Of a stretch of 64,000 nt of DNA, positions 731 through 35,007 are shown piece after piece. This stretch comes from an uncultured Megasphaera sp. (GTDB lineage Bacteria > Bacillota > Negativicutes > Veillonellales > Megasphaeraceae): contig UQHB01000001.1 in NCBI GenBank assembly GCA_900540735.1, forward strand, positions 6,791 through 70,790. The letters are read 5' to 3'. A model generated the notes under the pieces. It saw only the letters and a list, made by a program, of their open reading frames with translations. It did no database searches and had not been told where the DNA came from. Made by a program: the position numbers and the translations under genes. The number at the start of each line of letters is the position of its first letter. Within the stretch, counting starts at the first letter, position 1.

Positions 731-1516
731 TTACTTATGAACGCGCGCTGCGCCTACATACCGGGGACCCCAATAGGAGCTGTCCAGGCTGTCTACGCGA
801 ATACCGCCGCTGCTCGTTGCACTAATGAAATTGTTATTGCCGACATAAATCCCTGTATGGGAAATACCCGGTTCATACGTCGTAAAGAAGACTAAGTCGC
901 CAGGAACTAATTCGCTCCGTTTGACCTTATCACCAAATTCGTACTGTTCATCAGCCATACGCGGCAATTCAATGCCATTATGAGAAAAAACATATTTCGT
1001 AAAGCCGGAGCAGTCAAAACCATCTGGTGTATTGCCGCCAAAGACATAGGGCACGCCTAAATATTCATAGGCAGACGAAACGACGCTTTGGCCAAACTTT
1101 GCATTGTTGCCAGAAAATTGTTTCCACTTCGAAACCTTTCCTGTAGAGCCTTTATAATCACGGCCGCCGTTGTCGATGTTGGCATACTTACTCTTACTAC
1201 TAGCAGCCGTTGAGGCTTTGTCATTCTGCGTGAGCATTGTGCGCTTACCGGTTAATAAATAGTATGTCCAGCCACCTACTCTACCGCTGACTTCGATTTT
1301 TTTATCTTTTTGGTATTGCGATACCGCATCGGCTGTGTCTTTCGTGTACACGCCGTTTGTGTTGACATCATAGCCTAATTTCCGAAGCTGCTTCTGAATG
1401 GCTTTGACGTCATCGCCTTTACTCCCAACGGTATAATACGAAGCTGCACTTACTGGTAAGCTGGCTGCTGCTGCCAGAGCTACAACCATACAAACTTTAC
1501 TTAATTTCTTCCACAT
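731..1516 (-). CDS. secreted NlpC/P60 cell-wall hydrolase with PG-binding domain
   Basis: Signal peptide, PG_binding_1-like segment, C-terminal NlpC/P60 motif DCSGF...H. Confidence 0.85.
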   Translation of the reverse strand: MWKKLSKVCMVVALAAAASLPVSAASYYTVGSKGDDVKAIQKQLRKLGYDVNTNGVYTKDTADAVSQYQKDKKIEVSGRVGGWTYYLLTGKRTMLTQNDKASTAASSKSKYANIDNGGRDYKGSTGKVSKWKQFSGNNAKFGQSVVSSAYEYLGVPYVFGGNTPDGFDCSGFTKYVFSHNGIELPRMADEQYEFGDKVKRSELVPGDLVFFTTYEPGISHTGIYVGNNNFISATSSGGIRVDSLDSSYWGPRYVGAARVHK

Positions 1517-26631: not shown

Positions 26632-26639
26632 GGATTTTC

Positions 26640-26883
26640 ATTCCTCCTACAAATAAAAAATAGACTTCCACCCCGTAAGGGGCGAAAGTCTGATTCGCGG
26701 TACCACCCTAATTTGTACTCTTCATCCTGTAACGGGAACACCCGTCTTGCCTACTCTCTTCAGCAAGAAGCTCCAAAGTGAACGCAAGAAACGACCGGTT
26801 ACGCAACTCTCAGTCTTAGGCTGCCTATTCCTGTTCCGGGGCAAGTTCCTTGCTCTCTTTGTCATTGCCATAGTAAATATAAC
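26640..26883 (-). ncRNA. T-box leader (Phe, inferred) controlling pheST
   Basis: Exact T-box AAUUAGGGUGGUACCGCG (plus 26695-26712 reverse complement), then terminator gacuuucgcccc uuac gggguggaaguc + uauuuuuuauuu; stem I AGAGA; candidate UUC specifier. Confidence 0.85.
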
Positions 26884-26889
26884 AGCTAT

Positions 26890-26918
26890 ATTGTATCAGT
26901 ATAAAGTTTTATTTGCAA
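26890..26918 (-). promoter_or_regulatory. promoter for T-box/pheST (TTGCAA-N17-TGaTACAAT) overlapping acd stop
   Basis: Read directly. Confidence 0.5.
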
Positions 26919-28035
26919 TAACTAAACGCTGAATTTGGTTTGTCCCTTCGTAAATCTGCATGATTTTCGCATCGCGCATGTATTTTTCGACAGGGTATTC
27001 TTTGATGTAGCCGTACCCGCCCATAACCTGCACAGCATCAGTCGTGACTTTCATCGCTACGTCAGACGCATTACATTTAGCAATAGCAGCTTCGCGGCTG
27101 AAATCTTTGCCCTGATCTTTTAACCAGCAAGCACGCTGTACGAGGAGACGAGCACCATCTACAGCCATGGCCATATCGGCAATCATAGCCTGAATCATCT
27201 GGAACGACGCAATGGGCTGGCCGAACTGTTTCCGTACTTTTGCATATTCGCAGCATGCATCAAAGGCAGCTTGGGCAATGCCGACAGATACAGCACCGAC
27301 GAAAGGACGAGCTGCGTCGAGAGTGTTCATGGCAATACGGAAGCCTTGACCTTCGCGGCCGAGACGGTCTTCCATAGGTACATAGCAATCCTGGAAAATG
27401 AGTTCTGTCGTGTTCGATGCACGGATACCCATTTTATCTTCTTTTTTACCAATCGTAAAGCCCGGTGTACCTTTTTTTACCATAAAGGCCGTTAAGCCAC
27501 GGACACCGCCGCTTTTACGGGTGTTCGCAAAAACCGTAAAGACATCGGCAAGGCCGCCGTTCGTAATGAAGCATTTCGAACCATTGAGAATATAGCCTTT
27601 ACCGTCTTCTGTTTTGACAGCTCGTGTAGAAACGGAGCCTGCATCAGAGCCAGTGCCCGGTTCAGTGAGAGCAAATGCGGCGAGCTTGTCTTCTGTAATG
27701 ATGTCGAAAAAGCGTTTTTTCTGGTCATCGTTACCAGCTAAAATAACAGGATACGAAGCGAGGGCATTAGCAGCAACAGTCGTCGCAACGCCGGCGCAGC
27801 CTTTACCTAATTCTTCGTATAACGCAGCAATCGTAACGGCATCGAGGCCGGCACCGCCAAATTCTTCCGGAATGGCAACGCTGAGAAGCCCTTGAGCTGC
27901 TAATTTGTCGAGGAGACCTTCGTGGAGTACGCCGGTTCTATCCATTTCACCAGCATGCGGTTTAATTTCTTTTTCTACTAAATCGCGTACGACTTTGATA
28001 ATATCCTGCTGTTCGCTATTATACGCAAAATCCAT
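26896..28035 (-). CDS. short-chain acyl-CoA dehydrogenase (butyryl-CoA dehydrogenase-like)
   Basis: 379 aa, ACAD fold motifs (GSDAGS, catalytic Glu near C-term YEGTNQIQRLVIA). Confidence 0.9.
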   Translation of the reverse strand: MDFAYNSEQQDIIKVVRDLVEKEIKPHAGEMDRTGVLHEGLLDKLAAQGLLSVAIPEEFGGAGLDAVTIAALYEELGKGCAGVATTVAANALASYPVILAGNDDQKKRFFDIITEDKLAAFALTEPGTGSDAGSVSTRAVKTEDGKGYILNGSKCFITNGGLADVFTVFANTRKSGGVRGLTAFMVKKGTPGFTIGKKEDKMGIRASNTTELIFQDCYVPMEDRLGREGQGFRIAMNTLDAARPFVGAVSVGIAQAAFDACCEYAKVRKQFGQPIASFQMIQAMIADMAMAVDGARLLVQRACWLKDQGKDFSREAAIAKCNASDVAMKVTTDAVQVMGGYGYIKEYPVEKYMRDAKIMQIYEGTNQIQRLVIANKTLY

Positions 28036-28073
28036 TTCTACTAACCAACCTTCCCGCTGAAATTTACAGTATG

Positions 28074-28517
28074 TTAATCTAATTTCCCAATAATGTAAAA
28101 GGACGACCGCCCTTTTACGATAACCTTACCGTCTTTGTCAAAAAATTCACATTCTACAACAATCGTCTTGCCGCCGTGATGCACGACTTGACCGACACCG
28201 ACAATATCTTCTTCTGCACGCACTTGGCGGACATAGTTCATATTGATTTCGAGGGTCGTCACGCGATACCCCAAGGTCCGGCTGGCCATCCCCATGAGGG
28301 TGTCGCAAAAGGCTGCTAAGACACCGCCTGAGGCAATGCCGCGGCGATTGCAAAACTGCGGCGCAATGTGAAAGCTTAGGCGTACCCAGCCCGTATCCAA
28401 ATCTTGGACCTCAAAGGGGAGCTGTTTAAAATACGGTGTTTGCCGCCGTACACTCTGGCAGACCGCCAGGAGTCGTTCTTTGTTGCTCACTGGCTCTTGT
28501 CTTGTATCCATCAGCAT
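28074..28517 (-). CDS. hotdog-fold thioesterase (PaaI/4HBT-like), copy 2
   Basis: 147 aa; 7-nt overlap with upstream paralogue. Confidence 0.7.
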   Translation of the reverse strand: MLMDTRQEPVSNKERLLAVCQSVRRQTPYFKQLPFEVQDLDTGWVRLSFHIAPQFCNRRGIASGGVLAAFCDTLMGMASRTLGYRVTTLEINMNYVRQVRAEEDIVGVGQVVHHGGKTIVVECEFFDKDGKVIVKGRSSFYIIGKLD

Positions 28518-28936
28518 TCCTCCTCTAGCACAAAGGAGCCGGTCACGTAGAACGTGCCTTTGCCATGGGCTAAATACCGTTTTTGATTGTCGTAGAGGTC
28601 ACACAAGACAACCATCGTCGTCCGGCCATTATGAATGACCTTGGCCCGTGCTTCAATGGTCGTATCCCGAAAGGCAGGGCGCAAATAATTCATCCCTAAA
28701 TCGAGAGTGAGTACATCTTTACCAAGGACTGCACAAGCCGCTTCCATAGCCGATGCTGCCTGCGCATAGAGCACACCACCATAGAGTGTGCCGTTTGGAT
28801 TATCCCAAGTCGTACCGGCATTATCAAAGACCAGTGTAATGCCGTCTGCATCTGCTTGGACGACTGTAAACTGCATAAACGCATCAAAGGGATTTTCCTG
28901 CAGTGCCTTGTTTAACTGGCGTACTGTCTCATCCAT
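28511..28936 (-). CDS. hotdog-fold thioesterase (PaaI/4HBT-like), copy 1
   Basis: Start moved to ATG 28936 (RBS GAAGG); ORF-track TTG start 29008 lies inside promoter P2. Confidence 0.65.
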   Translation of the reverse strand: MDETVRQLNKALQENPFDAFMQFTVVQADADGITLVFDNAGTTWDNPNGTLYGGVLYAQAASAMEAACAVLGKDVLTLDLGMNYLRPAFRDTTIEARAKVIHNGRTTMVVLCDLYDNQKRYLAHGKGTFYVTGSFVLEEEC

Positions 28937-28979: not shown

Positions 28980-29008
28980 ATTTTACTATATACGTAGTCA
29001 TTCGTCAA
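28980..29008 (-). promoter_or_regulatory. promoter P2 for thioesterase-acd operon (TTGACG-N17-TAAAAT)
   Basis: Read directly, just downstream of sRNA terminator. Confidence 0.5.
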
Positions 29009-29020
29009 ACGAAAGGAACG

Positions 29021-29257
29021 GAAAAAAAGAAGCTGTGCAATGCACAGCTTCTGATATGCCTGACCTGGTTTTTACCCCCACACTCGCCTGCTGGAAGGTT
29101 CGCTCTTAGATGGTCTGCATCCCCCACTACTACTTCTCTCGCTTTTTGCGGCAGGTCTTACGTCTAGGCCGCACTATGATCAGCACCGCTTTGGGTGCCT
29201 TACGTGGATCCCTTTGCCTGCGACTGGCTTGGACTTGCAACCACAGCGCATATCAGT
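29021..29257 (-). ncRNA. candidate stand-alone structured sRNA (~235 nt); identity unknown, 6S-like rod possible
   Basis: Consensus promoter TTGACA-N18-TATAAT (29262-29291); 5' CUGAUAUGC pairs 3' GCAUAUCAG and extends; perfect 10-bp GC-rich hairpin + U7 at 29021-29052; only a 23-codon leaderless-type ORF inside. Confidence 0.55.
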
Positions 29258-29261
29258 ACAC

Positions 29262-29291
29262 ATTATACGCAAGGAATACTTATCCTGTCAA
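29262..29291 (-). promoter_or_regulatory. consensus sigma70 promoter TTGACA-N18-TATAAT driving the sRNA
   Basis: Both hexamers perfect. Confidence 0.7.
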
Positions 29292-29296
29292 CAAAA

Positions 29297-29330
29297 AAAC
29301 GGCATTCTCTCTGAGAAATACCGTTTTTGC
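29297..29330 (-). terminator. omp intrinsic terminator
   Basis: aacgguauuucuc agag agaaugccguu + uuuuuug. Confidence 0.7.
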
Positions 29331-29334
29331 ATAC

Positions 29335-29916
29335 TTAGAACTTGTAGCCCATGCCGACTTGCCAGCCGTTGACACTGTCATCGTAGTTGTCCACATCAAT
29401 ATCACTGTCGCGATATTTAATGTGGGCATCCCATTCCGGTGTAATGTCGTAGCCTACACCGATTTCATAGGTATTGACGTCGTCACCGACACCGACAGAC
29501 GCAAAGCCTTGCCACCGTTCCGCTAAAGGCAGCTGGCCTTTGAGGCCTACTTGATAGCCGTAGGATTTCGTGTGGTTGTACGTTTCTGTATTGACATAGG
29601 AACCACCGGCATAAGCCGAGACGTACGGCGTTAAGCGATAATTACCGACCAGGTAATGTTCGTTAATGCGGTTGCCGTTGTTCCCTTTTGTCTTGTTATT
29701 AACGTACTGCAAATCTAAATTATCATTCAAGACATAAGTTACATCACCGCCTGTAAAGCGGCTGTCTGCACTGCGGCCCCCTTCTTCTTGGTCGAAGCCA
29801 TAGTTAATGTTGGCCTTTAAGTCACCAGCTTGGGGATACTTAATCGGTGCTGCAAAGGCTACAGCACTGACACTCACCAAGGCAGTAACAGCCAAGGTTA
29901 AGCCAATTTTTTTCAT
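29335..29916 (-). CDS. small outer-membrane beta-barrel protein (OmpW/OmpA-like)
   Basis: Signal peptide, alternating amphipathic strands, C-terminal ...YKF. Confidence 0.75.
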   Translation of the reverse strand: MKKIGLTLAVTALVSVSAVAFAAPIKYPQAGDLKANINYGFDQEEGGRSADSRFTGGDVTYVLNDNLDLQYVNNKTKGNNGNRINEHYLVGNYRLTPYVSAYAGGSYVNTETYNHTKSYGYQVGLKGQLPLAERWQGFASVGVGDDVNTYEIGVGYDITPEWDAHIKYRDSDIDVDNYDDSVNGWQVGMGYKF

Positions 29917-29983: not shown

Positions 29984-31036
29984 TCAGTCCTTTTTCGTGC
30001 CATATTTATGCAGAATTTCTTCTGCTGCTTCGATGACATGGCCTTGAGAAATGACAGAAATACCTTCGTACTTTCCTTCTTTAATGATTTGCTTCATGCT
30101 CTTGCCGATTTCGTAGTGGTCTGTCGACTCGAGGACAATGGCTTTATCCGTATAGGGACCATAAAATTTCGGATTACTTGGGCCATAGAGGGCGACAATG
30201 GGCACGTGCTGGCTCACAGCAATATGCATAGGGCCGCTATCATTCGTAATAAAGAGAGAACAACGGCGAATGGCTGCAGTCAATTCACCAATAGAAAATT
30301 CACCAGTACCAATGATAGCTTTATGATGCATTGCCGTCGTCGCGTCACGGACCATTTCTTCATCCATAGTGCCGCCAAAGAAGACGGCTTTATAGCCTCG
30401 TGTCGAAAAATAATCGGCTACAGCAGCAAAGCGTTTCGGCGGCCACCGTTTTTGCGGCACTGCACTGCCGATATTAAAGCCAATGAGTTTATCACTGGGG
30501 AGGACACCATGAGCTGTATAGAACTTCGCTGCTCGTTCATCCCAAGCCGGGCATGTTTCAATCTGCAATCCTTCGTTACGGTAATCATTGATGCCGAGCT
30601 GGTCTAAGACATTGATGTACATGTCGGCTGCATGTACATGGATACGGTCGAGCTTCGTATACCGGTCCATAAAGGGACGGAACAAGAAATGGCTCATGCC
30701 GTCAAATTCTTTAGCATGAATGACCGTCGCTAGGAAGGATGTCCGTTCGTTAGGATGAAGATTAATCAGCAAATCATAGTGGTTGCGATGGAGTTCCCTG
30801 CCAATACGCCAAAGCGCGCCAATAGAGTTGTCTTTCCCTTTTTTGTCGACCGTTACGAGATGGTCAATATTGGGGTTATAGCGCACGACATCAGCTACTT
30901 TTTCATCGACTACAAGCGTAATCTCCGAGCCTAAGGCATGGCGGCGCAAGACTTGTAAAAACGGCGTAATCAAGACTAAATCGCCAAGGTGCATGAGATA
31001 CGTGACAATAATTTTTTTTTGCCGTAAATTAATCAT
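29984..31036 (-). CDS. ADP-heptose:LPS heptosyltransferase (GT9, WaaC/WaaF-like)
   Basis: GT9 motifs (LGDLVLITP...; GPMHIA...). Confidence 0.8.
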   Translation of the reverse strand: MINLRQKKIIVTYLMHLGDLVLITPFLQVLRRHALGSEITLVVDEKVADVVRYNPNIDHLVTVDKKGKDNSIGALWRIGRELHRNHYDLLINLHPNERTSFLATVIHAKEFDGMSHFLFRPFMDRYTKLDRIHVHAADMYINVLDQLGINDYRNEGLQIETCPAWDERAAKFYTAHGVLPSDKLIGFNIGSAVPQKRWPPKRFAAVADYFSTRGYKAVFFGGTMDEEMVRDATTAMHHKAIIGTGEFSIGELTAAIRRCSLFITNDSGPMHIAVSQHVPIVALYGPSNPKFYGPYTDKAIVLESTDHYEIGKSMKQIIKEGKYEGISVISQGHVIEAAEEILHKYGTKKD

Positions 31037-32063
31037 GTCGTACCTCCTGGATAATGTGTTGATACGTCTGCCAAACCGTATCGACTGTCAGTTGTTTCAT
31101 ACATTCCGGGTCATCTACTAAAGGATGTTCCGGTGTAGCTTTTGCCGTTGGCGACGTAAGGATATGAATATACGTACTCTGAGGGCCACCGTACGGGCCT
31201 GTACGAGCCGGACTGGTCGGTCCAAAGAGGGCCATTAATTCTTTTTTTAAGGCATTGGCAATATGGAGCGGCCCCGTATCGGCACTAATATAGACAGTTG
31301 CCATGGCAATAGCTGCCATCAATTCTTTGAGCGTCGTCTTCCCTGTATAGTCATAGACGAGCTGTGAAGACCCGCCGTCTGTAACAGCCTTCCCTTTCGG
31401 TACATCATCACCGCTGCCGAGCAAGACAACAGGCATACCAGTGGCGACAATCCGAGTAATGAGCTGCTGCCAGTACGGTATAGGCCATTCTTTGACATCC
31501 CAACGCGCACCAGGAACAATCGCTATATACGAGCCAGTCAAGCCGTCTGCAGCAAAGCGTTTGGTCAGTGTTTCTTTTTCAGCTGCAATAGAAGGCAAGG
31601 GAAATTCAACCCCAGCAACAGTGCCGTCAAGGACGCGAACTGTATCTAAATACCGTTCAATGACGTGGTCTTGTTTATGCGGTCCTACGAGGCCTTTGCT
31701 GACTAAGAAACTGCCTTCACGCATTTCCCAATAGCCATAATGCTTTTTGGCACCACTCAAGAGAGCGACAATGGCACTTTTCGCGAGCCCTTGCAAATCT
31801 AAGCACATATCGAAATGATAGGCATGCAAGGTGCGGCGCAACTCGCACCAATAAGACGGAGATTTTAGCCGCTTTTTGTCAATCAAAACTACGTCATCAA
31901 TATAAGGCTTACCTGGCAGGACGGTTGCAAACTGTGGATGAACGGCCCAAATGATACGGGCATGCGGGCAATTTTGCCGCAACGCATAGAGCGTTGGCAA
32001 GGCATGGATAACATCGCCTAGAGAACTCATTTTAATGATGAGGATGTTCTTATACGCCTCCAT
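31029..32063 (-). CDS. ADP-heptose:LPS heptosyltransferase (GT9), second copy
   Basis: Start set at MEAYKNILIIKMSSLGDV (ATG 32063); ORF-track N-extension overlaps gmhB. Confidence 0.8.
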   Translation of the reverse strand: MEAYKNILIIKMSSLGDVIHALPTLYALRQNCPHARIIWAVHPQFATVLPGKPYIDDVVLIDKKRLKSPSYWCELRRTLHAYHFDMCLDLQGLAKSAIVALLSGAKKHYGYWEMREGSFLVSKGLVGPHKQDHVIERYLDTVRVLDGTVAGVEFPLPSIAAEKETLTKRFAADGLTGSYIAIVPGARWDVKEWPIPYWQQLITRIVATGMPVVLLGSGDDVPKGKAVTDGGSSQLVYDYTGKTTLKELMAAIAMATVYISADTGPLHIANALKKELMALFGPTSPARTGPYGGPQSTYIHILTSPTAKATPEHPLVDDPECMKQLTVDTVWQTYQHIIQEVRHD

Positions 32064-32571
32064 GACCGTTCCTTTCTGCGAGAATTTCATCGACAAAATC
32101 CGCAAAATTCCCACCTGTAAATAAGTAGCCCTGTACACCAGCCTTTTCACCGCAGTCTATATCCCGTTGTTTGTCGCCAATAAGAAAGGACTGCGTAGTG
32201 TCAATATCATACTCCTTCATAGCCGCTAAGACCATACCGGGCTTGGGTTTACGCCAATCGCTATCAAGGTCGTACGGCTTGACAGTCGCACCGGGCAAGA
32301 ACGGACAATAGTAGCACGCCGTAATAGGCGCACCATGTGCAGTTGCTTCGTCGCACATCCAATCATGGAGATGCTGTACGTCCTCTTCCGTGTAATAGCC
32401 GCGACCTACACCGCTCTGATTCGTCACGACAATAAGCAAATACCCTGCATCATGGAGGCGTTTCAAGCCGTCTAAGACACCGGGAATCCATTCAAAATCA
32501 TCGACTTTATACAGGTATCCTTTGTCCACATTGAGCGTGCCGTCGCGGTCCAAAAAGACAGCTTTATTCAT
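32050..32571 (-). CDS. gmhB: D,D-heptose 1,7-bisphosphate phosphatase
   Basis: HAD motif FLDRDGTLN; start at MNKAVFLDRDG with ATGAATAA-type overlap of hldD stop. Confidence 0.8.
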   Translation of the reverse strand: MNKAVFLDRDGTLNVDKGYLYKVDDFEWIPGVLDGLKRLHDAGYLLIVVTNQSGVGRGYYTEEDVQHLHDWMCDEATAHGAPITACYYCPFLPGATVKPYDLDSDWRKPKPGMVLAAMKEYDIDTTQSFLIGDKQRDIDCGEKAGVQGYLFTGGNFADFVDEILAERNGHGGV

Positions 32572-33529
32572 AGTATCCGCCACTCTTATCGAGGATGGAG
32601 CAATATTCTTTGACTGCTTCTGGTAAGAGTGTAAAGCCCCGGTCATACCCGGCTTGCATCAGTTTGGTCGTATCTGCCTGCGTATAGCTCTGGTATTTCC
32701 CTTTAAGGATTTCCGGGAACGGTACGTATTCAATATGGCCTTTGCCGCAGTAGTCAATGACACCTTGGACAAATTCGTTGAACGAATGGCCTTCGCCAGT
32801 ACCGCAGTTGTAAATGCCCGATAATTCCTGATGTTCCCAGAAATAGAAAATGACGTTGACTACGTCTTTCACGTAAATGAAGTCCCGGATTTGCCCGCCA
32901 TTTTCGTAGCCTGCTGTCCCTTCAAAGAGCGTAATTTTTCCCGTTTTCTGGAGTTCGTTATATTTCTGGTAGATTAAGGATGCCATTTTGTCTTTGTGGT
33001 TTTCTTGAGGCCCAAAGACATTGAAATAACGGAAGCCAACAATTTGGCTCTTAGCAATCGGGAAAATACGGCGCACAAAACGGTCGAACTGTAATTTCGA
33101 GTACGCATAGGGATTGAGGGCTTGTTCGCAAGACGGGTCTTCACGGAAACCATTTTTACCGCTGCCGTACGTCGAAGCAGACGATGCATAGAGGAACGGA
33201 ATTTTCCGGTCTGTGCAATAACGCAAGAGATTTTTCGAGCCTTCGTAGTTATTTTTCATCATGTAGCGGCCGTCGTAATTCATCGTATCCGAGCAAGCCC
33301 CTTCATGGAAGACTACATCAATATAGCCATAGTCAAAGGAATCATCAGCCATGGCGTCATCAAAGTCTTCATAATCGATGTAATCATAGAAATCAAGGCC
33401 TTGTAAATTGCGGCATTTACGGCCATCTGTTAAATCGTCGACGATAAGAATATCGTTAATGCCTCGTTCATTCAAGGCTTTGACAATGTTACTGCCAATA
33501 AAACCGGCACCACCTGTTACAATTTTCAT
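32564..33529 (-). CDS. hldD: ADP-L-glycero-D-manno-heptose 6-epimerase
   Basis: GGAGFIGSN Rossmann, SDR extended family, 321 aa. Confidence 0.85.
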   Translation of the reverse strand: MKIVTGGAGFIGSNIVKALNERGINDILIVDDLTDGRKCRNLQGLDFYDYIDYEDFDDAMADDSFDYGYIDVVFHEGACSDTMNYDGRYMMKNNYEGSKNLLRYCTDRKIPFLYASSASTYGSGKNGFREDPSCEQALNPYAYSKLQFDRFVRRIFPIAKSQIVGFRYFNVFGPQENHKDKMASLIYQKYNELQKTGKITLFEGTAGYENGGQIRDFIYVKDVVNVIFYFWEHQELSGIYNCGTGEGHSFNEFVQGVIDYCGKGHIEYVPFPEILKGKYQSYTQADTTKLMQAGYDRGFTLLPEAVKEYCSILDKSGGYYE

Positions 33530-35007
33530 AGTTTCCCCTTCTTTACTAATGTTGCAATTTTATCAATAATACCAGTCGTCGAATAGCCTTCTTCAAAAGA
33601 AATGATTTCGACGCGCTTTACAAATTCTTTGCCAATGACTTCGTCGGGCTTGTAGTCGCCGCCTTTGACGAGAATATCCGGCCGCAAGACAGCAAGCAAT
33701 TCTTTCGGCGTATCTTCCGTAAAGATAACGACTTCATCCACACAGCCTAATGCCGAGAGCAAGACAGCTCTATCTTCTTCGTGGACAATAGGTCGCGTTT
33801 CGCCTTTTAAACGCCGTACAGACGCATCGGAATTGAGGCCAATGACGAGATGCTGCCCGAGCATAGCCGCTTGCTGTAAATATAAGACGTGGCCGCGGTG
33901 CAAAATATCGAAGCAGCCGTTCGTAAAGACGACAGTATCACCGTTTTTCTGCCACTGTCTGATTTTTTTTGCCGTATCTTCCCACGTCAGTGGTTTGTAT
34001 GGAGCCCAACGTGCAGGCTGCCATTCACTCCAGACTTTCAATAATTCACTGCGGTGAATGGGATACGTCCCGACTTTAGTGACGACAATACCAGCCGCTT
34101 CGTTGGCAATTTGCAGACTCGTACGGATAGATAATTTTCCGGCAATAGCGGCCAAGAACGACGCAGCTACTGTATCTCCAGCACCGGAAACATCAAAGAC
34201 TTCCCGGGCTACAGCCGGATTATTCCAGACCTTGCCATCGTTGCCGATGACCGTAATTCCCTTTTCGGAGCGCGTCACCATGAGGTGGGCAAAGTCATAC
34301 TGCGTGTGCAAGACCTTGGCTGCTGCCACGACGGCATCGCCTTCGTTCGGAATGGCCCGGCCTACGCAATCGCTTAATTCTTTCATATTAGGTGTCACAA
34401 AGTCAGCACCATTGTACTTCGTCCAGTCACTGCCCTTCGGGTCGACTAAGACCGGTATGCCTGATTCTTTGGCCGCATGAATGACGGCCCGTGCGGCATC
34501 CTCTGTGAGTGCGCCTTTTTTATAATCGGACAAAATAATGCCGTCTAAGCCCTGAGCAATGCATGCTTGGAGCCACGTGACGAGCTGAGCCGTTTCGTCT
34601 TCACGGAGGGGCGTAATTTCTTCAAAATCGAGCCGTACCATTTGTTGGCGCGCACCGAGGACGCGCATTTTCGTCGTCGTCGCATGCCCGTTGCGTACAA
34701 TGAGGCCTGTATGGTCAATATGGGCATCGTCTAATAAGTTACGCAATAACCTGCCGTTATCATCGTCACCAATGAGGCCGGAAATGAAGACATGGCAGTC
34801 TAAATTAGCTAAATTAGCAGCCACATTGGCAGCACCGCCAAGGACAGACGAAATGTGGTTTACCTTATTGACCGGCACCGGTGCTTCCGGCGAAATCCGT
34901 TCGACTTTGCCAAAGACATAGCGGTCGACCATCATATCGCCAATGACGGCAATGCGCAGCTTGGGCAGGACATCATTTAAAAAGTGGTCAATGTAATGAT
35001 CTGTCAT
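33526..35007 (-). CDS. hldE: bifunctional heptose 7-phosphate kinase / heptose 1-phosphate adenylyltransferase
   Basis: 493 aa; N-terminal PfkB-type kinase, C-terminal cytidylyltransferase HxGH (FDILHRGH). Confidence 0.9.
   Translation of the reverse strand: MTDHYIDHFLNDVLPKLRIAVIGDMMVDRYVFGKVERISPEAPVPVNKVNHISSVLGGAANVAANLANLDCHVFISGLIGDDDNGRLLRNLLDDAHIDHTGLIVRNGHATTTKMRVLGARQQMVRLDFEEITPLREDETAQLVTWLQACIAQGLDGIILSDYKKGALTEDAARAVIHAAKESGIPVLVDPKGSDWTKYNGADFVTPNMKELSDCVGRAIPNEGDAVVAAAKVLHTQYDFAHLMVTRSEKGITVIGNDGKVWNNPAVAREVFDVSGAGDTVAASFLAAIAGKLSIRTSLQIANEAAGIVVTKVGTYPIHRSELLKVWSEWQPARWAPYKPLTWEDTAKKIRQWQKNGDTVVFTNGCFDILHRGHVLYLQQAAMLGQHLVIGLNSDASVRRLKGETRPIVHEEDRAVLLSALGCVDEVVIFTEDTPKELLAVLRPDILVKGGDYKPDEVIGKEFVKRVEIISFEEGYSTTGIIDKIATLVKKGKL

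Follow-up and report, generated by a model that had tools for sequence, protein, structure and literature searches.

We found a gene for a structured non-coding RNA on the minus strand of a 64,000-nucleotide (nt) stretch of contig UQHB01000001.1, which stems from an uncultured Megasphaera species and is hereafter called the window, i.e., the whole stretch of DNA that was analysed. The gene, which extends from its promoter at position 29291 to the end of its terminator at 29021, belongs to the raiA motif family, also known as ModT. With a probability of roughly 0.9, we read it as an independently transcribed, single-copy raiA RNA gene, the product of which acts in trans. The raiA motif family, its structure, its occurrence in Negativicutes and its stand-alone transcription have all been published, and the locus thus represents no new RNA class. 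The raiA motif is, at the same time, among the most widespread bacterial structured RNAs without known biochemical function, and each well-delimited copy is of some use. The value of this particular copy lies in its putatively diderm gut lineage, its clean and conserved transcription unit, a natural variant of the bulge in its closing helix P1, and its non-canonical gene context.

Assignment to the raiA motif family

When the entire window was compared with Rfam 15 at gathering thresholds, RF03072 (raiA RNA) was matched at 29256-29051 on the minus strand (206 nt; 184.1 bits versus a gathering threshold of 101.3; E = 6.2e-47). The alignment is untruncated and spans positions 1-209 of the 209 positions of the model, and the window contains one copy of the family. 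Other RF03072 copies from Negativicutes, including Veillonella, Acidaminococcus, Phascolarctobacterium, Dialister, Sporomusa and a Selenomonadales metagenome-assembled genome, score 184-202 bits; because the score of the window copy lies within this range, we consider it an ordinary family member. Its G+C content amounts to 55%, compared to 47.5% in the window. A permissive Rfam scan of the region (E <= 10) revealed nothing besides raiA above noise.

An earlier, sequence-only reading of this DNA had proposed a stand-alone gene for a non-coding structured RNA, a proposal that is borne out by the RF03072 match, the covariation and the conserved promoter and terminator described below. That reading had also reported no match to a list of riboswitch and signal recognition particle motifs. 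It was right in that the RNA is not a common riboswitch, but it had not recognised the family, RF03072.

A pseudoknotted structure supported by covariation

The published structural model (Soares et al. 2024, PMC10861870; cryo-electron microscopy (cryo-EM), PMC12968392) was threaded onto the window RNA; the Rfam model goes back to the paper of 2017 in which the motif was first reported. Nucleotides of the RNA are numbered such that nt n corresponds to window position 29257-n, with nt 1 at 29256, and all parts of the RNA lie on the minus strand. Each of the 60 pairs of this model forms in the window RNA as a canonical or a G-U pair. The 206-nt core of the RNA (29051..29256) represents the subtype without helix P2 and with P7 and P8.

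The two ends of the core are joined by the P1 arm, with its 5' strands at 29239..29256 (P1a, nt 1-9; bulged G10; P1b, nt 11-13; P1c, nt 14-18) and its 3' strands at 29051..29070 (P1c, nt 187-191; a GGU bulge, nt 192-194; P1b, nt 195-197; P1a, nt 198-206). P1a comprises 9 base pairs (bp), P1b is formed by CUG/CAG and P1c by UGGUU/AACCA, with a GCAA turn after P1c. A closing helix between the 5' and 3' ends had been noticed from the sequence alone. This pairing of CUGAUAUGCGCUGUGGUU at the 5' end with AACCAGGUCAGGCAUAUCAG at the 3' end is present in both the minimum free energy (MFE) and the centroid fold and corresponds to P1a, P1b and P1c.

The turn is followed by the bent hairpin P3a/P3b (29208..29234, nt 23-49), in which nt 23-26 pair with nt 46-49 (P3a, GUCC/GGAU) and nt 29-31 with nt 39-41 (P3b, GCC/GGC), and which contains an asymmetric AA/AAAG internal loop that fits the description of the solved structures (PMC12968392). 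The apical loop of P3b (29219-29224, nt 33-38) provides the 5' strand of the first pseudoknot, PK1, the 3' strand of which, UGCGGC, is located at 29168..29173 (nt 84-89). P4 is formed by CCACG (29203..29207, nt 50-54) and its partner UGUGG (29082-29078, nt 175-179), P5 is a hairpin at 29182..29199 (nt 58-75), and the second pseudoknot, PK2, pairs UA at 29175..29176 (nt 81-82) with UA at 29074-29073 (nt 183-184). Between PK1 and P6, the conserved linker CUAGACGUAA (29158..29167, nt 90-99) is single-stranded. The three-way-junction domain P6-P7-P8 (29087..29155, nt 102-170) comprises P6 (nt 102-106 with nt 166-170), P7 (nt 107-109 with nt 115-117) and P8, which spans nt 121-163 and holds an E-loop with UAGUA (nt 125-129) facing GAA (nt 156-158). 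An alternative 3-bp helix of the Rfam model (nt 27-29 with nt 175-177) contains one A-G mismatch in the window and was set aside; the cryo-EM-based pairing of P3b and P4 was used in its place, and these helices are 99.6-100% paired in the family alignment.

For this alignment, reference genomes were scanned with a pattern of two conserved blocks, which retrieved at least 120 raiA loci from Clostridia, Negativicutes, Acidimicrobiia and other groups. The window RNA was aligned with 49 distinct P2-less homologues, and the family-wide values given here refer to these 50 sequences and include both pseudoknots. Across 2966 pair cells, 96.1% are paired; in controls with the 3' partners shifted by 1-3 columns, this value falls to 31-44%. 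Changes on both sides occur in 35 of the 60 pairs, and none of 500 shuffles attains the observed values. The structure was partly derived from the window member of these sequences, which favours the true pairing over the slid controls, but the count of double changes lies far beyond this bias.

Both pseudoknots are part of this picture. All cells of the six PK1 pairs are paired (100%), with double changes in three of the pairs, and the two PK2 pairs, 97% paired, both covary (U-A/C-G and G-C/A-U/U-A). The window RNA itself carries a compensatory A-U in PK2 where the consensus (UG/CA) has G-C, a change that is common to its whole clade, and the U-A pair of the consensus is replaced by C-G in several Negativicutes. 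Nine pairs covary in P1a, all six P5 pairs have changed on both sides, and P3a, P3b and P4 are 99.6-100% paired (P4, 99.6%), with compensatory changes in P3a and P3b. P6, P7 and P8 are present in the window RNA and covary as well. No variation occurs in P1b, in the GGU bulge or in four of the five P1c pairs, the fifth P1c pair being either U-A or U-G; the sequence UAGA.GUAA within the linker is invariant, too. The MFE fold of the single sequence recovers P1, P5, the terminator and PK1, the latter as a nested helix, while the pseudoknotted core is beyond its reach.

A conserved promoter-RNA-terminator unit

The RNA gene is preceded by a sigma70/SigA-type promoter (29262..29291, minus strand) that matches the consensus at 12 of 12 positions, with the -35 box TTGACA at 29291-29286, an 18-nt spacer, and the -10 box TATAAT at 29267-29262. 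The exact TTGACA-N18-TATAAT motif occurs once in the window, compared to 0.01 occurrences expected from dinucleotide shuffles, so that the perfect promoter described in the sequence-only reading is indeed unique in this DNA. Read along the minus strand, the -10 box is followed by 5 nt, then by the RNA from CUGAUAUGCGCUGUGGUU to AACCAGGUCAGGCAUAUCAG, and directly thereafter by AGAAGCUGUGC-AUU-GCACAGCUUCU and U7. The transcription start predicted from the promoter position (29257-29255) coincides with the first base of P1a.

The intrinsic terminator (29021..29052, minus strand) consists of an 11-bp stem with six G-C pairs and a 3-nt loop (29052..29028), followed by T7 at 29027..29021. Folded alone, its hairpin reaches -15.5 kcal/mol, and the first 2 nt of its stem are the end of P1a. 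This terminator had been located correctly before, with a stem counted as 10 bp. Between its start at ~29256 and the last U of the U-tract at 29021, the unit measures 236 nt, in agreement with the ~235 nt proposed earlier, and it predicts a primary transcript of approximately 230-236 nt, which would be comparable to the long isoform ModT(L). The earlier statement that the RNA contains no sizeable open reading frame (ORF) holds as well: ORFs on the sense strand are restricted to 30-40 amino acids (aa) and begin with GTG or TTG.

On the 5' side, a further terminator (29293..29323, minus strand; -16.5 kcal/mol, z = -3.6, followed by U7) belongs to the gene of an outer-membrane beta-barrel protein (OMP). 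With this terminator and its own, the RNA gene is cut off from transcription on both sides. On the 3' side, outside the RNA, the separate downstream promoter that had been noted before was found again as a promoter-like site, TTGACG-17-TAAAAT (28980..29008, minus strand; 10 of 12 positions). It precedes the thioesterase and acyl-CoA dehydrogenase genes, and the thioesterase ATG at 28936 lies 3' of it.

The same arrangement recurs in related gut bacteria. A metagenome scan with the downstream thioesterase yielded 41 loci, many of them labelled human gut metagenome, the proteins of which are 65-89% identical to those of the window. The shared gene order comprises two heptosyltransferases, the OMP beta-barrel protein, raiA RNA, two 4HBT thioesterases, acyl-CoA dehydrogenase and pheS. 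The raiA RNA is present in 32 of these loci with 82-86% nucleotide identity, and the 19 distinct sequences among them were aligned with that of the window. The other nine loci gave no raiA match, most of them (the exception being locus L138) having too little sequence upstream of the thioesterase. In all 19 relatives, the -35 and -10 hexamers are invariant, while the sequence of the spacer has diverged; its length is 18 nt in 18 relatives and 19 nt in L163. A terminator is likewise found in 19 of 19, as a hairpin of -18 to -28 kcal/mol with T5-7 a few nt after P1, although these hairpins are unrelated in sequence between groups of relatives. Within this clade, 98.2% of the structure cells are paired, versus 30-41% in slid controls, and eight pairs show double changes. 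Taken as direct comparative evidence, these alignments argue for a promoter-RNA-terminator unit that is conserved in related species.

Variation in the P1 bulge and in gene context

According to PMC12968392, P1a and P1b are separated by a highly conserved GU bulge. Of the 50 aligned sequences, 48 show GU at this place, and a single G is found in the window RNA (29247, G10) and in the Pseudoramibacter sequence L043; all 19 clade relatives have a single G, too. The retained G10 is the G that forms a base triple in the solved structures (PMC12968392). This distribution shows that the bulge U can be dispensed with in nature, having apparently been lost in this clade and independently in Pseudoramibacter L043. 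In 46 of the 50 homologues, P1a ends with a G-C pair; the window RNA has C-G instead, and its clade has U-G or C-G.

Typically, raiA RNA has comFC on its upstream side (74% of genomes) and raiA/hpf on its downstream side (66%), although contexts vary (PMC10861870). The RNA in the window lies between the OMP beta-barrel gene and two 4HBT thioesterase genes and does not match the typical comFC-raiA/hpf context, no search aimed at hpf itself having been made. Searches by tblastn with the comFC, RecD2, HD-GYP and SBP proteins of Veillonella and Acidaminococcaceae loci found no homologue in the 64-kb window. Moreover, the window has no flanking gene in common with any raiA locus among the matches listed (at least 120, from reference genomes), which do not include its own species. 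Both the bulge and the gene context are minor, clade-level variation in a known family, and the gene context has no effect on membership.

Proposed function and alternative explanations

The RNA gene would be transcribed from its housekeeping consensus promoter, with the P1 closing helix supplying the first base of the transcript. Judging by its C. acetobutylicum and C. difficile orthologues, the transcript is expected to be abundant and very stable, and to act in trans and not on neighbouring genes; the terminator hairpin would probably be kept as a protective 3' extension, as in ModT(L). The rigid fold could then serve as a scaffold that offers a partner two elements, the conserved and exposed CUAGACGUAA linker and the P1 arm with its fixed length. 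To such a role as ribonucleoprotein scaffold or regulator we assign an even chance. Independent transcription and trans complementation have been shown in two species, C. acetobutylicum and C. difficile, the only ones for which high abundance, stability and an action in trans, exerted on transitions between growth phases, are established (PMC10861870, PMC11706538). In C. difficile, a core form is accompanied by a more stable 3'-extended form with the terminator hairpin (PMC11706538). Deletion of the RNA gene leads to late entry into stationary phase, less sporulation and aggregation, and more cyclic di-GMP (c-di-GMP) (PMC10861870, PMC11706538). Flanking genes differ wholly between lineages among the raiA loci compared, which argues against a cis-acting role.

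Regarding the partner, cryo-EM revealed a rigid, compact pyramid in which the length of the P1 arm is conserved and a conserved linker of 10 nt lies exposed (PMC12968392). This linker is solvent-exposed in the solved structures and was proposed as the site bound by KhpA-KhpB, which binds four different raiA RNAs at ~2 uM (PMC12968392). KhpA and KhpB are the only partners with biochemical support.

Several observations weigh against this interpretation of the locus or narrow it. The single-sequence folding energy is ordinary for the composition of the RNA (z = -1.38). Of two checks that had been suggested with the sequence-only reading, RNA folding and covariation in relatives, it is the second that reveals strongly conserved and covarying pairs (96.1%; clade, 98.2%), and support for the predicted structure is the covariance-model match together with this covariation, not thermodynamics. 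Where the transcript starts and ends in the Megasphaera host, and how abundant it is, are predictions, and the single-G bulge could give P1 a slightly different geometry. The KhpA/KhpB link is weak, with micromolar affinity and heterogeneous complexes. Many gut Negativicutes are not known to sporulate, and the physiological read-out in this host may differ from that in the model organisms. Phenotypes in the latter centre on sporulation (PMC10861870, PMC11706538), and earlier KhpB analyses by the authors of PMC11706538 did not detect ModT binding.

The main mechanistic alternative concerns the mode of action of the same RNA, which could be a trans-acting ribozyme or could bind, as a receptor, a small molecule, e.g., a cyclic dinucleotide. 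Conservation amounts to at least 97% at about 25% of positions; large conserved bacterial RNAs, as was argued by Breaker and colleagues, are usually ribozymes, and these authors suggested a link to cyclic-dinucleotide signalling (PMC10861870). The increase in c-di-GMP upon modT deletion in C. difficile and the shift of in vivo dimethyl sulfate reactivity with growth phase (PMC11706538) agree with such a function, as does the divergent HD-GYP-type (HD_5) gene that adjoins raiA in 10 of 14 other Negativicutes loci. In vitro, however, neither self-processing nor small-molecule binding was seen (PMC5737381, PMC10861870), the fold is unlike that of known c-di-GMP riboswitches (PMC12968392), and the window locus is without an HD-GYP neighbour (tblastn, whole window). 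We regard a ribozyme or receptor as less likely than not.

A trans-acting raiA RNA might also have acquired additional features in this clade, e.g., a secondary role in cis in which regulated read-through of the terminator links folding or occupancy of the RNA to expression of the acyl-CoA metabolism operon, or an altered geometry, due to the bulge, of the P1 arm, which is suspected to be functional. The RNA gene would, in that case, have moved from a comFC, HD-GYP or ABC (ATP-binding cassette)-transporter context and become fixed, together with a conserved terminator, directly upstream of a thioesterase/acyl-CoA dehydrogenase operon. We give this scenario, including the relocation, a slim chance.

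That the element is entirely cis-regulatory, i.e., a riboswitch-like leader of the thioesterase/acyl-CoA dehydrogenase operon with the terminator as its expression platform, is very improbable. Rfam does label RF03072 as 'Cis-reg; riboswitch', and 2 nt at the end of P1a also belong to the terminator stem. This overlap is, however, restricted to 2 nt, an antiterminator that would form as an alternative pairing is not evident, a second promoter-like site (29008..28980) follows the terminator, and a terminator is absent from many orthologues. Downstream genes elsewhere are unrelated, comprising genes of ABC-transporter binding proteins or raiA/hpf, which was reported as typical (PMC10861870), and trans complementation succeeded in two species (PMC10861870, PMC11706538). 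We retain a small residual weight for a role in cis because the RNA-thioesterase arrangement is kept within the genus-level clade.

The sequence-only reading had compared the RNA to 6S-like rods, and a long 5'/3' closing helix, a length of ~200 nt and a strong housekeeping promoter would indeed suit a rod-shaped open-promoter mimic that sequesters RNA polymerase, but the Infernal/Rfam scan suggested along with that comparison returned RF03072 (184.1 bits) and no 6S RNA (RF00013) at the gathering score or at E <= 10, and the covariation-backed structure is multi-branched, with two pseudoknots and no central bubble, and the solved structures are compact pyramids (PMC12968392), which makes this idea highly implausible. 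Equally implausible is a protein-coding region in the form of a 138-aa ORF on the opposite strand (29110..29526, plus strand): it exists and is called as a gene on five of six metagenome contigs examined, but it has no Pfam match, it crosses the raiA RNA, its promoter, the OMP terminator and the 3' end of the OMP gene in antisense, the substitutions in relatives are compensatory base-pair changes and not codon-like, and we regard it as an almost certain artefact of gene callers that lies over an unannotated non-coding RNA gene. Annotations should name this locus raiA/ModT non-coding RNA and drop the antisense ORF.

Neighbouring genes and other features of the window

The RNA gene is separated from pheS-pheT by a block (26896..28936, minus strand) that holds the acyl-CoA dehydrogenase gene and, in tandem, two thioesterase paralogues of the 4HBT/PaaI type. 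The two thioesterases are ~30-37% identical to each other (tblastn), and the block is kept in the related gut loci. In Bacillota, one might expect pheST to be preceded by a T-box leader; none was detected in the intergenic region of 264 nt upstream of pheS (26632..26895, minus strand), which gave no Rfam match at gathering thresholds.

The 5' neighbour of the RNA gene is the small OMP beta-barrel gene (29335..29916, minus strand). It stands before a lipopolysaccharide (LPS) inner-core/ADP-heptose cluster (29984..35007, minus strand) that encodes two GT9 heptosyltransferases, a HAD phosphatase, an epimerase and a bifunctional PfkB kinase/cytidylyltransferase-like protein; nrdR and ftsZ come after this cluster. 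Other RNA features of the window are a c-di-AMP riboswitch (ydaO/yuaA leader, RF00379; 1515..1658, minus strand; 70.9 bits versus a gathering threshold of 38) directly upstream of an ORF at 731..1516 (minus strand), and an 81-nt tRNA gene with a long variable arm (RF00005; 63117..63197, minus strand; 51.7 bits). This gene content, with its ADP-heptose/heptosyltransferase LPS cluster, OMP gene and c-di-AMP riboswitch, points to a putative diderm, Negativicutes-like host within the Bacillota. The closest raiA sequences among the matches listed are from Acidaminococcus and Veillonella.

Comparison with known systems

Ca-raiA of C. acetobutylicum (204 nt, RF03072), for which cryo-EM structures exist, is of the same subtype as the window RNA, without P2, with a short P7, and with a P8 that contains an E-loop. 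Both RNAs share the P1a/b/c arm, the GNAA-type turn after P1c and the bent P3a/P3b hairpin with its AAAG loop, as well as P4, P5, PK1, PK2 and the UAGA(C/A)GUAA linker. In contrast to Ca-raiA, the window RNA has a single G instead of GU in the P1 bulge, C-G instead of G-C as the last P1a pair, and UA/UA instead of UG/CA in PK2. It also has an intrinsic terminator directly after P1, whereas none was reported for Ca-raiA, and it is flanked by OMP and thioesterase genes instead of comFC and gntR.

ModT of C. difficile (isoforms of 215 and 260 nt) resembles the window RNA in its single SigA-type promoter and its downstream intrinsic terminator, which in C. difficile yields the 3'-extended form, and in a G+C content above the genome average. 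The window terminator differs from that of ModT in that it abuts P1, with the 2-nt overlap, and adds only ~30 nt. The phenotypes described for C. difficile may not carry over directly to a diderm Negativicutes-like host.

Within the Negativicutes, the raiA RNAs of Veillonella, Acidaminococcus, Phascolarctobacterium and Dialister show 73-81% nucleotide identity to the window core. A strong sigma70-type promoter (10-12 of 12 positions) lies directly upstream of raiA in 10 of 11 other Negativicutes loci examined, as it does in the window. Unlike the window RNA, the raiA RNAs of these four genera keep the GU bulge, and Veillonella raiA loci have recD2-comFC upstream. HD-GYP proteins are c-di-GMP phosphodiesterases. 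Of 14 other Negativicutes loci, 10 have a gene of this type (HD_5, motif HHExWDGSGYP) on the opposite strand, at a distance of 116-499 nt upstream of raiA (L031, L062, L065, L094, L103, L110, L114, L116, L118 and L123, from Veillonella, Acidaminococcaceae and Phascolarctobacterium), and a gene for an amino-acid ABC-transporter protein (SBP_bac_3) follows raiA in eight of these ten. The HD-GYP neighbours fit the reported connection between ModT and c-di-GMP, and neighbours in cyclic-dinucleotide signalling were already mentioned by Soares et al. (PMC10861870).

6S RNA (RF00013), finally, is, like the RNA family described here, an abundant and stable housekeeping-type bacterial non-coding RNA of ~200 nt with paired ends. 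It imitates open promoter DNA by means of an extended rod that contains a central bubble, whereas the window RNA adopts a branched, doubly pseudoknotted globular fold.

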